DNA of 64,000 nucleotides, from contig VGVX01000005.1 in the NCBI GenBank assembly GCA_016873845.1, positions 2,002 through 66,001 on the forward strand, given 5' to 3'. Source of the stretch: Ignavibacteria bacterium (GTDB lineage Bacteria > Bacteroidota > Ignavibacteria > Ch128b). Each line of letters opens with the position of its first letter. Positions within the stretch are counted from its first letter, which is position 1. Below the pieces are notes generated by a model, which did not search any database, was not told where the DNA came from, and saw nothing but the letters and a program-made list of their open reading frames with translations. The position numbers were made by a program, and so were the translations under genes. Below are positions 3,706 to 53,409 of the stretch, one piece after another.

Positions 3706-6700
3706 GTGGCACATTCCTTAAGCAGCCAGCAGAAAAAAGCATTACTCATTGACAGGAATATTGCATTAACAGCAAATGCAGGTTCAGGAAAGACTTTTAT
3801 TTTGTCGAGAAGGTTTTTGGAGACGGTTATTTCCAAAAATATTTCGGTGAATCAAATTGCAGCAATAACGTTCACTGAAAAAGCTGCGGGTGAACTATTG
3901 GCAAAAATCTCAAATGATATTGATGAATTTTTATTGAGTGAAATTCCTCAAAAGCTTCGCTTGCAAATTCAAAAATTTCGCGATTTAATTTTAACCGCGA
4001 AGATCTCCACAATCCATTCCTTTTGCTCTGACATTCTAAAAAAATATCCAATTGAAGCTGAGATCGACACACAATTCTCAATTATTGAAGACTCAGAGAA
4101 AAAGGAAATAATTACCTCTGCCGTTGATAAAGCTGTTAAAGACTTGTTGAGCGAGAACATTGTCAAAGATGTGCTTCGAATTTTTGGGAAGCAGCATCTC
4201 TTCGAAAAGCTTGAGAGAATGATCAATAAAAGATATTTAACCGAGAAAGTGCTAGATAATCTCTATGAAAATGACTTTGAACACTTCAATAAAAAGATTG
4301 ATGAACTATACATAAAATATTTCTCAAGCGAATCCTCATGCAAAAGAGTCCAAAATCTAGTCAGCCAGCTGAGAAATGTTTTGCCTTTTATGATTGATTC
4401 TATGAGTGCGGAACTTTCGGATCTGATCGCGAGTGTCAAAAAGAACATTGAAGTTCGTAACTTCCAAGAAGTATTTCTTCTTCTTTCAGAATTAAATCAG
4501 ATTGTATTTGTCAAAAATTGGGATGGTATCCGAAAGAAATCTTTCGTCAAGGGAAAAATCGATTGTACTGAGTTTGATGAATTTATCGAACGACTTTTTT
4601 TTGAGATGGAATACTTTTCACCATTTATCAATGCGGAGTATTATGATGAGATCAATGAAAGGAAAAGATTTTTTCTCACACTAGCGATCATTGAAATATA
4701 TGACTCAGCTTTACAGATTTTTGAAAGTGAAAAAAATAAACTTGGGTTTTTGGATTACGATGATCTTTTAATTAAAACTGATCGACTGTTAGATAATGAA
4801 ATTGTTCGAAACGAAATCTCAAATTCGTTAAAGTACATCTTAGTAGATGAGTTTCAGGACACAGATCAGCTTCAGTATTCAATATTAAAAAAAATTACAA
4901 ATGATTTTGACGAGGAACATTTTCTATTCATTGTTGGAGATGAGAAGCAAAGCATTTATGGTTTTAGGAACGCTGACATTAAAGTCTTTCAAAATGCCAA
5001 AAGTGGAATTTCGAATTCTAATTCATTAATTGCAGAGTTTGATTTCTATGATGAAAAAGTTGAATTAATTAATAACGAAACTTCCGGAATTATCACTCTT
5101 CCAGAAAACTATCGATTGCTTCCGAACTTAATTGCATTTAATAATTATTTCTTCAAATCACTAATGGAAGATAATATTGATTTGAGTGCCGTAAATTTTG
5201 ATGGAGAGGTTTCATATTCTGATTTAGTGCATGCAAGAAATAATAACGCAAATGGAATAGTTGAACTGCTTATCAATAACGAATCAATTGAGGATGAAGT
5301 TGAAAAGGTGGCGGATAAAATTGAATGGCTCGTCAACAGCGAATATAAAATATTTACTAAAGATAAAAGTGCGAATTCTGAAATCGAGCAATCAGTAAAT
5401 TATCGAGACATAGGTATTTTATTCCGTGAAAAATCTTTTTTCAAAAAGTTCGAACGTGAATTTGCGAAGAGAAAAATTCCATATACTATCACCGGAGGGA
5501 AAGGTTATTATCAAACTGAGGAAATAACAGATTGGATCCAATATTTTAAATTCCTATCGGATTTGAAAAATGATGTTGCACTCGCAGCTGTACTGCGATC
5601 ACCATTTTATGCTCTGAGCGATAATATACTATTTGAGATTAGCGAAATCCAAAATGGCGATAGTCTGTTCGAAAAATTTATTATGTATGCAAAAAACTTC
5701 GATAAAAGTGAAGTTTTGAATGTATATGATTCATTAAACCGGCACTTAAACGTTGCTGGTAGAATTACACTACCAAACTTGATTCAACTCATATTAAATG
5801 ATACGGGTTATTTGGGTGTGATTGCATCTGATCAAAGAGCAAACCAAATCAATGCAAATGTACTGAAGCTTCTTGATAATGCAAGAGAGTTTGAAGCGAA
5901 AGGATTTTCCGATCTTTTCGATTTTACAGAATATTTAAAATTTAATTGGAAGGAGGATACTGAGGTCGGTGAGGCTCCAATTAATGAAATGTCTAACAGT
6001 GTAAAACTGCTTACAATTCATCAAGCCAAAGGTTTGGAGTTCCCAGTAGTTATTATCCCGCGGTCAGATATGCCAATCAAAAACTACCAACTTAATTACG
6101 GACAGCTTGATGTTGAAGAGAACACGGGATTAATATTTAAAATTAACTCAGGAACTGAAAACATACATACTAAATCTTCTGTTCTCGGTTATCACATCAA
6201 AAGTCAAAATAATTACAATGAAGCACTAAGAGTTTTTTATGTAGCTTTAACAAGAGCAAGAGACTATTTGATAATTTCCGGAACTGGCCACGATAAGTTG
6301 TTTACACAGAATTCTCTGTTGAAGAAAATTCTTGAGATACTTGAAGTAGCTGATTTCAGGACTAATCGTAAGCTTACTCGCAATGTTAAGCTGAGTTCTA
6401 TATATCTAGCTGAGAAAGAATCGAAGTTACTTGAGAGGAATTTTCAACTTGAAGTTAATTTGAATCCGGCTGTTAAAAAAGTAACAAAGAAGATGGAAAC
6501 AATTGGGAAACAAAAAGCTTCTTCGGCAAAAGAGATTGCGATTTCTGCATTAACAGATTTGCCAAAAGGTGAATTTTTCACAGCTACACAGTTAAATGCC
6601 TTTTCTCTCTGCCCGACAAAATATTTAATTAAGTATCAAATTGGCCTCGATGAAAATTTTTCAAGCTCAGACCCGACTTTGAACCTCACTGGAAATTCCA

Positions 6701-16553: not shown

Positions 16554-16571
16554 ATCCATCAGCTGACGGAT
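16554..16571. repeat. Imperfect palindrome ATCCATCAG-CTGACGGAT, one member of a recurring palindromic motif.
   Basis: Read directly from the sequence, about 20 nt upstream of the start codon of the four-helix-bundle gene. Confidence 0.5.
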
Positions 16572-16590
16572 GATTTGATAAGGGAGTTAT

Positions 16591-16989
16591 ATGAATAAAC
16601 ATGAGTTAGAGGAACGACTGATAAATTTTGCAGTTTTAATAATTGAGATTGTAAATGAATTACCGCAAACAAAAGCAGCGATACATCTCTCAAATCAACT
16701 GATTCGGTCTGGTACTTCACCCGCACTGAATTATGGGGAAGCACAAAGCGGTGAATCGAGAAAAGACTTTATCCATAAAATTAAAATTGTATTAAAAGAA
16801 TTGCGTGAAACATTTGTTTGCCTGAAAATTATTGACAAAGCAAAGCTCTACCAAGCGTCAGATCATACTTTAATGGAAAAAGAACTAAAACTAAAAAGTA
16901 AAATAGAGCGAGCATTGAAAGAAAGTAATGAATTGATCTCTATTTTTGTGAAAAGTGTTGAAACTGCACAAAGAAACATTGAGAGATAG
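16591..16989 (+). CDS. Four-helix-bundle protein of the 23S rRNA intervening-sequence protein family (TIGR02436-like).
   Basis: It is about 130 aa and helical. The family pattern EL..L..I..G..S.A.NY.EA is present. Confidence 0.7.
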   Translation: MNKHELEERLINFAVLIIEIVNELPQTKAAIHLSNQLIRSGTSPALNYGEAQSGESRKDFIHKIKIVLKELRETFVCLKIIDKAKLYQASDHTLMEKELKLKSKIERALKESNELISIFVKSVETAQRNIER

Positions 16990-18112: not shown

Positions 18113-18865
18113 TTATATTTCGGAGTTAATAAAATCCGCCAACAATTCCGCTTGCTTTAGAACTGTATCAATTGCTTTTTGTTGCTTATCGGGAGGATAT
18201 CCATATTTTGTAAGAGTACGTTTAACAAGTACCATCAGTTTTGCTCTAGCACTCTCACGAATAGTCCAATCAATCGTTGTGTTCTTTTTAACCTTATCAG
18301 CAATTTCTCTTGCAATAGTTTTTAATGTTTCATCTCCCAAAACTTTTACCGCACTGTCATTCGTTTCAAGCGCATTGTAAAATGCAACTTCTTCAGTTGA
18401 TAAACCAAGCTTCTCACCTTCTTTGTCAGATTCTTTTACTTCCTTGGCAATCCGTATAAGCTCCTCAATTATCTGCGCTGTAGTTAACAAATTATTTTGA
18501 TATTTCTTTATTGCTGATTCAAGCATTTCTAAGAAAGCTTTGCTCTTTACAAGGTTTGTTCTTAACCGTGATTTGATTTCATCGTTCAGTATCTTCTTCA
18601 ATAGTTCAATCGCAAGATTTTTATGGTTCATCCCTTGAACTTCCAACAGAAACTCATCAGATAAAATTGAAAGCTCCGGCTTTTCAATTCCGGCAGCTTC
18701 AAAAATATCAATGACTTTATCTGAAGTAATCGCTTGATCAACTATTTGTTTGATAGCAGTTTCAAAGCCCTCACCCCCGCTTTCCTGTCCGAAAATAGAA
18801 ATACGATCTTTAGGATTAAGAGCGAGTTTCTGTCGGGGCTGTCTCAAAAGGTTCTCTCGATACAT
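18113..18865 (-). pseudogene. hsdR: Type I restriction enzyme HsdR, C-terminal domain fragment only (DUF3387-like). It is preceded by an 8-aa HsdM-like remnant, ISIFGQES.
   Basis: The segment ...VLVKRTLTKYGYPPDKQQKAIDTVLKQAELL is the conserved C-terminus of HsdR. The helicase/nuclease N-terminal 700 or more residues are missing. Confidence 0.75.
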
Positions 18866-19665
18866 CCGTCAAACGACGGATTACTCGAGAACCTTTTAAT
18901 TTTTGCGGTTTTCGAGTTTTTTCTGACAAAGTCAGAAAAATTATCGAGAAAACACAAGTTATGAGACAGCCTCTTAGAGGGGGCTTTGTAATGATCAGAA
19001 TGCGCCTCAATAAACTTTTCACTTTGCACAAACATACCACCGCTGCCGCAGCAAGGATCGAACACTCTTCCTTCATAAGGTTCAAGCATTTCAACAAGCA
19101 ATCTTACAACGCAGGTTGGAGTATAGAATTGACCGCCTTTCTTTCCTTCTGCTAAAGCAAACTGCCCTAAGAAATATTCAAACACTTTCCCAAGAATATC
19201 TTTACTCTGAGCTTCTTTTGTTCCTAAGGTTGCAGTGCTTAATAAATCTATTAGACTTCCCAAACTTGCCTTATCAAGTTTTTCTTGAGAATAGACTTTT
19301 GGAAGAACATCCCTAAGCGACTTTGGATTATCTTTCTCAATCGCTACCATAGCATCATCAATATCTTTTCCAATTGTAGGAAGCTTTGCACGACCTTGCA
19401 GCCATTTCCATCTTGCTGAGGGTGGAACATAAAATACATTCTCGGCTGTATATTCATTTTTATCTTCCGGATCAGCTCCTTCGTTTTTTAGTTCAACCAA
19501 TTTTTGATAATGTTCCTCAAAAGCATCGGATATATACTTTAGAAATATCAAACCTAAAACAACGTGCTTGTATTCTGCAGCATCCATATTCTTTCGGAGT
19601 TTATCAGCAGCTTTCCAAAGCTTTTTTTCGAGAGGTTCTTCAGTATTTGATTTCTTTTTCTTCAT
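18844..19665 (-). pseudogene. hsdM: Type I restriction-modification methyltransferase HsdM, N-terminal fragment. Homology ends near nt 18980 and the rest of the ORF is read-through into the palindromic insert.
   Basis: The HsdM N-terminal domain, GQFYTP, and AdoMet motif I ([20 protein letters not shown]) are present. The NPPF catalytic motif and the C-terminal half are absent. Confidence 0.8.
18850..18957. repeat. Nested palindromic element of about 110 bp (MITE/REP-like). An outer palindrome of about 44 nt centres on ATCCGTCAAACGACGGAT. Inside it are a 10-bp stem (CTCGAGAACC/GGTTTTCGAG) and a 9-bp stem (TTTTCTGAC/GTCAGAAAA).
   Basis: Read directly from the sequence. It lies exactly at the junction between the hsdM fragment and the hsdR fragment. 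Confidence 0.6.
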
Positions 19666-52801: not shown

Positions 52802-53263
52802 TTATTTTCCATCCTTACTGGGAGTGATAACCAGAACAGGACACTTTGCATATCGAATTACTTTTTCTGCAACACTTCCAAGAAGTGTATGCAATAATCC
52901 TGTTCTTCCGTGAGTAGCGATTACAATCAGATCTATCTTTTTTTCTTTTGCGTAAGATGTTATGGTTTCAAAATCGTTCCCACGTAATAAAACTTCTTTC
53001 ACTTTTTCTGAGCTGTTAAATTTTTCCGCGAATTTTTTCAATAATGTCCGAGCGTCATCTTCGATCGTTTTTTGGATTTTTTCGGTTTTCAAATCAAGCG
53101 AACGAATTGTAAGAATCGGGGGTGTTTTTTCAAGTACATGAAGTAAATGAATTTCACCATCGTATTGGCTTGCAATTTCTTCGGCATAACCAAAAGCTTG
53201 CGCAGACATATCACTAAAATCAGTAGGAACTAATATCTTCCTAATCTTAAAATTTTTCTTCAT
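52802..53263 (-). CDS. Universal stress protein (UspA family).
   Basis: The ILVPTDFS...HGRTGL...GSVAEKV motif is present. The start is taken at MKKNF (53263). Confidence 0.75.
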   Translation of the reverse strand: MKKNFKIRKILVPTDFSDMSAQAFGYAEEIASQYDGEIHLLHVLEKTPPILTIRSLDLKTEKIQKTIEDDARTLLKKFAEKFNSSEKVKEVLLRGNDFETITSYAKEKKIDLIVIATHGRTGLLHTLLGSVAEKVIRYAKCPVLVITPSKDGK

Positions 53264-53367
53264 TTGGGCTTCAAATATAATGGAATTCCACGTCAAAAAA
53301 AAATTTTCACTTTCCTCAGTGCATCGGAACGAAAATCCACTCGAAAATAACTAAAAATGACTAAAGT

Positions 53368-53409
53368 TACGCAAAACAGTTATTCTGAATCCGTCAACTG
53401 ACGGATGAA
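53368..53409. repeat. Imperfect palindrome of about 42 nt, AGTTATTCTGAATCCGTCA-AC-TGACGGATGAAGAATCTAACT, belonging to the same motif family as the elements at 16554 and 18850.
   Basis: Read directly from the sequence, about 105 nt upstream of the usp start. Confidence 0.5.

Follow-up and report, generated by a model that had tools for sequence, protein, structure and literature searches.

Small palindromic repeats of the REP/REPIN, Correia and ERIC kinds are common in bacteria, and both their movement and their accumulation behind genes are still poorly understood. The REPINs of Pseudomonas and Enterobacteria are doublets of repetitive extragenic palindromes (REPs) which form hairpins and go with REP-associated tyrosine transposases, or RAYTs (PMC3116915, PMC3337134); in the second source their inverted arms are conserved, the spacer varies yet forms hairpins, and A/T runs at the ends are interpreted as terminator co-option. 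Their mobilisation is ascribed to a Y1/HUH transposase. Correia-, ERIC- and RUP-type miniature inverted-repeat transposable elements (MITEs) have direct target duplications on either side, TA in the case of Correia and ERIC-like elements, and Rickettsia palindromic elements (RPEs), listed in the same source, are palindromic repeats of ~105-146 bp that can sit in protein-coding genes (PMC3184786). Here we describe a palindromic element inside hsdM, the methylase gene of a decaying type I restriction-modification (R-M) locus, in a 64,000-nt stretch of an Ignavibacteria bacterium genome (contig VGVX01000005.1, positions 2,002 to 66,001 of the forward strand; hereafter the window). It belongs to a REPIN/MITE-like family of dispersed, non-coding, nested-palindromic repeats in metagenome-assembled genomes (MAGs) mostly labelled Ignavibacteriota. 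The family is mobile and multi-copy, inserts without target duplication and is strongly tied to terminator position; it is probably a non-autonomous mobile repeat which seeks out terminator hairpins and stands in for them.

Other copies came from a scan of one genome per species with the pattern GGCTGTCTCA-N2-10-GTTYTCTCGA, which both element ends match; the scan demanded an exact 21-nt match, so the copy counts are a lower bound. It returned 50 loci, comprising ~35 element-like sequences in 13 MAGs and ~15 chance or coding matches in other phyla, such as a conserved gene in L016/L026/L027/L043, which were set aside. The MAG labels are mostly Ignavibacterium, Ignavibacteriaceae and Melioribacteraceae, with two MAGs (5 loci) labelled Bacteroidetes/Bacteroidota and one locus labelled Atribacteria. 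Three MAGs hold up to 6 exact-pattern loci each at unrelated sites, the dispersed copies expected of a MITE, and ~30 copies are full length, with nhmmer alignments to the window copy that span it completely. Copies are small (<~400 bp), end in bipartite inverted repeats, contain no transposase gene and share no consistently open frame. Their flanking DNA is unrelated, save in the orthologous pair L012/L053 and the segmental duplication L023/L040, which means that not every copy is an independent transposition. The duplicated 2.3-kb segment, 95% identical within one Melioribacteraceae MAG (L023:4434-6703, L040:53-2341), holds an element copy as well as PAS histidine-kinase and response-regulator genes. 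Repeats shared by L023, L040 and L011 were considered as a candidate autonomous element and rejected, being paralogous PAS histidine-kinase/response-regulator genes.

Insertion sites could be compared with their empty counterparts at housekeeping genes beside two copies of the Ignavibacterium MAG JAGXRK01. At the first locus, eno-glnA, the element stands 11 nt past the eno stop codon in L012, L053 and L067, which form one clade (85-91% DNA identity). The site is empty in five contigs with three distinct sequences (L065/L066, L068 and L069/L070, the last being the most divergent), where a terminator-like GCCCGG-N12-16-CCGGGC hairpin followed by ATTTTTG is as far from the stop codon as the element is in the filled genomes; a terminator scan picked up the hairpin of L068. 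The filled genomes show no trace of the GCCCGG arms, yet their T-run and downstream sequence still align. At the second locus, asnB followed by an AMP-ligase gene, the genomes are closer to each other than at the first. The empty site of L074 reads …CATTTTTTTGTAGC / CGCAGGTTTTAGCCTGCG / AAATTTCTTTTAATAATTATAAG… (GTAGC, hairpin, AAATTT) and the filled site of L076 reads …CATTTTTTGTAGC / GG-GGCTGTCTCA…TGAGTCAGCC-TC / AATTTTTTAAATAATTATAAG… (GTAGC, GG-element-TC, AATTTT), with L019 filled at the same position. The L074 and L076 flanks are near-identical, and exactly the 18-nt terminator-like hairpin is missing from the filled site. At both independent loci, the element thus occupies the exact place of the resident terminator hairpin, with the spacing from the stop codon and the T-run kept.

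Two further arrangements were seen at related sites. In L060, the 3' ends of two paralogous genes are 85% identical over 397 nt; one gene is followed by a full element (4185-4309), and the other, with the same gene-proximal flank, by GGCTGTC-CTTTTGA-GACAGCC (2751-2774) and TTTTTTG. This bare hairpin resembles the element's outer stem (P1) and is likely an internal-deletion derivative that left a plain terminator. In L072, a more distant relative, the asnB/AMP-ligase intergenic region holds an IS200-like Y1 transposase pseudogene (L072:3625-4077; PF01797, E = 1.4e-18, three in-frame stops) at the intergenic position of the L019/L076 element. Upstream of the pseudogene are two small hairpins centred on GTTTCAAC, and by eye its flanks bear no similarity to the element.

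The association with gene ends extends beyond these two loci, as copies normally stand a few to ~35 nt behind a stop codon. Of 32 copies analysed, 31 are intergenic and just that of the window is in a coding region; 20/28 copies have a stop codon no more than 35 nt from one of their ends. Gene ends adjoin the element on its 5' side in 21 copies and on its 3' side in 16, without strong orientation bias. The two bases bordering P1 on either side are conserved almost as well as the element itself (among 29 copies, G at -2 in 26/29, A at -1 in 23/29, T at +1 in 21/29 and C at +2 in 24/29) and were therefore counted as part of it; a variant with CC at the 3' end is common to the window copy, L019, L059 and L076. 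Beyond these bases, A predominates in the 5' flank and T in the 3' flank. Where a co-oriented gene ends 5' of the element, the 3' flank carries 6.1 T per 10 nt, compared with 3.45 otherwise (p = 0.0015), and most intergenic copies, though not the window copy, present behind a gene the geometry of a GC-rich stem with a T-run directly after it.

No copy of 29 has a direct target-site duplication of at least 2 nt at the P1 ends; with the bordering GA/TC removed, 4/29 show a 2-3-nt direct repeat, which we take as chance. The flanks are instead complementary to each other, over a mean of 2.5 nt beyond GA/TC compared with 0.84 nt in permuted pairs (P < 0.0002), and this remains significant without the extreme case, L052 (12 nt). 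These results bear on a classical MITE, in which the DDE transposase of a cognate insertion sequence (IS) would recognise the 26-30-nt bipartite terminal repeats and cut and paste the element into AT-rich DNA; the position behind genes would then reflect the survival of harmless insertions, and the lost hairpins would be later deletions. Defined ends, long imperfect terminal repeats whose repeated inner motif is a possible binding site, and small, non-coding copies present in number and in both orientations all suit such a history. It is hard to square with the absence of direct duplications, and the ~345 kb examined yielded no longer element with these ends. Nor would an insertion followed by a separate deletion readily explain the asnB locus, where the hairpin is exactly gone between near-identical flanks. 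We judge a classical MITE improbable.

Exact hairpin replacement at both loci, together with the lack of target duplication, points to a hairpin-directed mechanism. An enzyme acting in trans on DNA hairpins or cruciforms would move the element and join its ends to both arms of the target stem, so that the apical part, and often the whole hairpin, would be replaced. A cut at the base of the stem would remove the hairpin altogether, while cuts higher up would leave complementary flanks, as in L052, L036 and L030. The 12-bp GC-rich outer stem and the kept T-run would then form the gene's new intrinsic terminator. Since the element would bring its own terminator stem, insertions would be nearly harmless. 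A more specific version, which we put forward only tentatively, is a 'terminator-swapping' element, in which a hairpin-specific enzyme, perhaps an HUH/Y1 transposase with single-stranded DNA as its substrate, swaps the element in for the stem-loop of a resident intrinsic terminator by linking it to both arms where the stem begins. Symmetric cuts higher up the target stem would make the flanks complementary and not directly repeated, and the swap would allow the element to spread without target duplication and with gene expression undisturbed.

Several observations weigh against a repeat that targets and replaces terminator hairpins. Terminator activity is suggested by geometry only, and just two comparisons of filled and empty sites were possible. 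Both strands fold equally well, so that a role at the RNA level is not demanded, and the conserved stems (P1, P2 and H2, Table 1) are almost devoid of compensatory changes in 26 copies, in which mutations just break pairs. No transposase or autonomous partner was found: no inverted pair of element ends lies 0.5-3 kb apart in ~345 kb (the element-bearing loci and the window), and the sole Y1_Tnp in the 620 kb examined is the L072 pseudogene, which is not flanked by the repeat. The genome from which the window comes shows one copy in 64 kb. That copy lies in a coding region with the 3' flank CCGACAGAAA, which holds no T-run.

REPINs are the nearest described kind, and the element could be a true REPIN, an inverted palindromic doublet mobilised as single-stranded DNA by a single-copy host RAYT of the Y1/HUH type. 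It shares the doublet build, in which two inverted palindromic units of ~45 nt, joined by a spacer, fold into one long hairpin, and its internal hairpins vary in sequence yet stay hairpins. Extragenic location, the lack of reported target duplications and terminal A/T runs are likewise described for REPINs (PMC3337134, PMC3116915), and the Y1_Tnp pseudogene of L072 occupies the same asnB intergenic position as the L019 element. The two differ, however, in sequence, to which no relation is seen, and in host phylum; its units exceed typical REPs in length, and a further conserved 12-bp clamp encloses them. A repeat-flanked RAYT was not seen, the flanks of the L072 gene being unlike the element by eye and no other Y1_Tnp occurring in 620 kb. 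The family is common to several divergent MAGs, unlike the mostly vertical, lineage-specific pattern of REPINs and RAYTs, and precise replacement of terminator hairpins is absent from the REPIN text passages searched. A true REPIN therefore seems possible but unlikely.

The hairpin replacement also sets the element apart from mobile DNA that is known to seek hairpins. Palindrome-associated derivatives of IS200/IS605 use or target DNA hairpins and leave no target duplication; IS1397 and ISKpn1 enter REP loops, and group IIC introns settle at terminators. These are known to insert beside or inside a hairpin that stays in place, whereas here the hairpin is removed. Correia-, ERIC- and RUP-type elements resemble the family in being 100-170 bp long and non-coding, with terminal inverted repeats and a stable predicted RNA fold, in lying often at gene 3' ends where they are co-transcribed, and in having size variants that arise from internal insertions and deletions; the element differs in the lack of a target duplication and is unrelated to them in sequence and host. 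RPEs share the in-gene location of the window copy, but they are typically in frame and translated, whereas the window copy adds a stop codon and its relatives are intergenic. Another dispersed terminator-like repeat, compared through its entry in a review table, is alike in its terminator-like structure and unrelated in sequence and architecture. The replacement behaviour is the part worth pursuing, and it suggests a 'safe harbour' strategy in which a parasite supplies the function that it destroys.

The window copy runs over 139 nt with the polarity of the minus strand, the sense strand of hsdM (Table 1), and a profile built from 26 copies matches it end to end with 113 bits on that strand and 38.7 bits on the plus strand. 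Both ends form a bipartite inverted repeat, (GA)GGCTGTCTCA, a 4-8-nt spacer and GTTYTCTCGATA, and the motif GTTYTCTCGA occurs four times within the element. The outer P1/P1' pair is a perfect 10-nt inverted repeat whose 10-mer is found nowhere else in the window and which is >90% conserved across the 26 aligned copies. In the minus-strand reading, the inner blocks are GTTTTCTCGATA (P2) and TATCGAGAGAAC (P2'), and the arms of H2 are CTCGAAAACC…GGTTCTCGAG. Reverse-complementing the left half, GTTTTCTCGATA-H1-ACTCGAAAACC, gives the right half, GGTTCTCGAGTA-H3-TATCGAGAGAACC, so that the element consists of two inverted palindromic half-units of ~45 nt each, clamped by the bipartite repeat and carrying interchangeable hairpins H1, H2 and H3.

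Table 1. Window coordinates of the element, its parts and the remnants of the R-M genes around it.
Feature	Position	Strand	Sequence or content	Remark
Whole palindromic element	18835..18973 (139 nt)	- (= hsdM sense strand)	GA-P1-8nt-P2-H1-H2-H3-P2'-4nt-P1'-CC (read on - strand)	end-to-end nhmmer match
P1, outer inverted-repeat arm	18837..18846		GGCTGTCTCA	partner 18962-18971
P1', outer inverted-repeat arm	18962..18971		TGAGACAGCC	partner 18837-18846
P2, inner inverted-repeat block	18851..18862		GTTCTCTCGATA	partner 18942-18953
P2', inner inverted-repeat block	18942..18953		TATCGAGAAAAC	partner 18851-18862
Hairpin H3	18864..18881		ATCCGTC-AAAC-GACGGAT	optional module
Hairpin H2	18883..18917		ACTCGAGAACC (18883-18893), 13-nt A/T loop, GGTTTTCGAGT (18907-18917)
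Hairpin H1	18918..18940		TTTTTCTGAC-AAA-GTCAGAAAAA	perfect, 10 bp
Truncated hsdM open reading frame	18844..19665	-	HsdM_N + first quarter of N6_Mtase	273 aa
TGA stop within element	18844..18846	-		ends truncated 273-aa HsdM frame
hsdM 5' part	18974..19665	-	HsdM_N (PF12161) + first ~75 positions of N6_Mtase (PF02384)
hsdM remnant 3' of element	18779..18834	-	RQKLALNPKDRISIFGQES	aligns with KLNPKDRISIYGQES of intact L002 HsdM
Deletion junction	18775..18779		hsdM (after GQES) fused to hsdR C-terminal part	intact-hsdM homology ends here
hsdR C-terminal remnant	18113..18778	-	PF11867, E = 2.6e-95	profile positions 117-327 of 329

A preliminary description had recognised a nested palindromic, mobile MITE- or REP-like element here, and that identification holds, with full-length, same-ended copies at many unrelated loci in related genomes and a sister hsdM allele without the insertion. 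All the palindromes that it listed are present, including an imperfect one of ~44 nt at 18850-18893 and the stem ACTCGAGAACC/GGTTTTCGAGT; the perfect hairpin TTTTTCTGAC-AAA-GTCAGAAAAA is real as well, with a stem of 10 bp where 9 had been counted. The proposed extent of ~110 bp (18850-18957) fell short of that given by end-to-end homology to other copies, because the supposed terminal repeats are only the inner block of the bipartite repeat and the real ends lie 14-16 nt farther out. A core said to recur at two other loci does so only roughly, as a short hairpin of the H3 type and not as the element, and searches of the window with blastn-short and an nhmmer profile found no second copy.

The predicted fold far exceeds shuffled-sequence expectation. 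The 139-nt minus strand folds as RNA at -64.6 kcal/mol compared with -27.2 ± 3.6 for shuffles (z = -10.5, matched by 0/200), the opposite strand does equally well (z = -10.7), and the plus strand folded as DNA gives z = -7.1. Seven representative copies from different subfamilies adopt a common shape with z about -10. As both strands fold equally well, a strand of action read from folding energies was rejected. So stable and conserved a fold, in copies many of which would be co-transcribed at gene 3' ends, might be that of a structured non-coding RNA gene or cis-regulatory RNA rather than a mobile element. Yet the conserved stems lack covariation, the only covarying pairs in the 26-copy alignment being the two flanking positions, and this scarcity, together with the equal folding of both strands, leaves no reason for a strand-specific RNA function. 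Copies also lie in both orientations relative to neighbouring genes, and one lies within a coding sequence whose sister allele is uninterrupted. An Rfam covariance-model search of the element returned nothing at the gathering score and, at E <= 10, only implausible weak matches of snoRNA or miRNA type. We consider an RNA gene or element very unlikely.

The repeats measure about 120-185 nt, within a full range of 65-219 nt that the modular make-up of the family accounts for. P1, P2 and H2 are conserved across copies, while H1 occurs in at least five sequence versions, every one of them a hairpin, and H3 is missing from most copies and represented by four different hairpins in the others. Some copies have gained extra GC-rich hairpins, and the 65-nt L047 is a deletion derivative that lost the sequence between internal direct TTCTCGA repeats. 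In a Melioribacteraceae subfamily, the right half is altered on both arms with pairing kept (GGTCATT…AATGACC compared with GGTTCT…AGAACC). Such hairpin-preserving variation could reflect selection for a DNA or RNA hairpin or template-switch correction of quasi-palindromes. The H3 module of one copy (L050:710-1233) is interrupted by about 380 nt of AT-rich DNA, which may be a nested insertion.

At the window locus, a sister allele without the element is that of L002 (JGI Ga0194113_10000229), which was found among contigs bearing an identical neighbouring alanine dehydrogenase protein. It carries an intact 543-aa hsdM that reads AHSDQYKKKNANGLKLNPKDRISIYGQES / …FIEAHSDQYKKKNANGLKLNPKDRISIYGQESNQTT… at the corresponding place, and the 5' part of the window gene is 94.5% identical to it in DNA down to 18985. 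Given this sister allele, the window copy is an insertion inside hsdM: it brought a TGA into the frame and truncated the methylase at 273 aa, so that an R-M methylase gene has been struck by an element of this family. The element had been placed at the hsdM/hsdR junction, but it is bordered by hsdM coding sequence on either side, and hsdM passes into hsdR only at about 18775-18779, ~56-58 nt from the element end. In protein order, the window encodes 14 hsdM residues, the element, RQKLALNPKDRISIFGQES and then the HsdR sequence GG-EGFETAIKQ…, and the open reading frame 18113..18865 (-) covers the final two thirds of HsdR's C-terminal domain (T1RH-like_C, PF11867).

This geometry also speaks to the idea, raised in the preliminary description, that the element had caused the R-M deletion, or more generally that the palindromes are its by-product or cause, as a recombination scar or recombinogenic palindrome. 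The element does lie <60 nt from the hsdM-to-hsdR fusion of a decaying R-M locus. However, 56 nt of hsdM follow it before the junction, it is intact and complete at both ends, and the same sequence stands at about 35 unrelated loci in other genomes, which refutes the deletion as the origin of the sequence. A causal tie to the deletion is thus barely credible, and the deletion is an event independent of the element in an already decaying type I R-M locus. As the co-occurring strain L002 keeps an intact hsdM with further R-M genes behind it, the window lineage has lost several kilobases of that locus; insertion and deletion occur together in three other contigs of the same population. By frame arithmetic, the 139-nt insert must have displaced an hsdM segment of length 2 mod 3. 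The hsdM loop at this region varies in length among homologues, and we conjecture that a displaced segment of 17 nt would fit a loop like that of P0004, the nearest informative homologue (HYKAPSNSPKGGGQKLALNP; APSN-SPKGG-GQKLA).

Beyond the genome scan, searches for the family gave little. A plasmid collection yielded only chance matches of 22-33 nt, and a scan of viral contigs one chance match in GC-rich coding DNA. Scans of metagenome contigs for the empty hsdM site and for the window H3 variant returned no matches and are uninformative, as the H3 pattern is known in JGI Ga0194119_10001143; that collection missed the exact 32-nt pattern of this contig (sample 3300020220) and apparently does not include these samples. 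Searchable literature, queried with the end sequences and with Ignavibacteria combined with MITE and repeat terms, held no relevant description of the family, which adds to Ignavibacteriota a kind of repeat for which we found none described in that phylum.

The window also contains two lone hairpins of the H3 type, ATCCGTC-N4-GACGGAT, where none are expected by chance. The intergenic ATCCGTCAACTGACGGAT at 53388-53407 (arms 53389-53406) lies 93 nt upstream of the open reading frame 52802..53296 (-), and ATCCATCAGCTGACGGAT at 16555-16572, with one mismatch, is intergenic and 19-36 nt upstream of an ATG at 16591. H1 and H3 modules elsewhere are variants of the same TYCNGAY…RTCNGRA type, and the lone hairpins may represent an operator or a tiny palindromic repeat of their own.

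Downstream of hsdM, L002 (1-3388) continues with a 27-aa open reading frame, a RhuM-family gene and one further gene before the contig ends; its hsdM is only 94.5% identical to that of the window despite the identical neighbouring alanine dehydrogenase protein. In two different MAGs, copies lie beside the same ~33-nt module, GGGCGAATTGAATTCGCCC-AAARCAAAMAAG (L022:3040-3072 and L046:6682-6714), in opposite relative orientations, and the other flank (CTACAAAA…) is also common to both. An orthologous site with an inverted element was ruled out here, as only ~35 nt of flank, containing another small hairpin, are shared; the arrangement points either to a composite site that the element prefers or to inversion in situ. 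Finally, the contigs L004 and L005 break at window positions 19007 and 19025, 34-52 nt from the element, and L071 and L075 break 31 nt past the asnB stop codon. Breaks so near to copies fit a repeat or polymorphism that fragments assemblies, and the family may explain some of the assembly breaks in these metagenomes.

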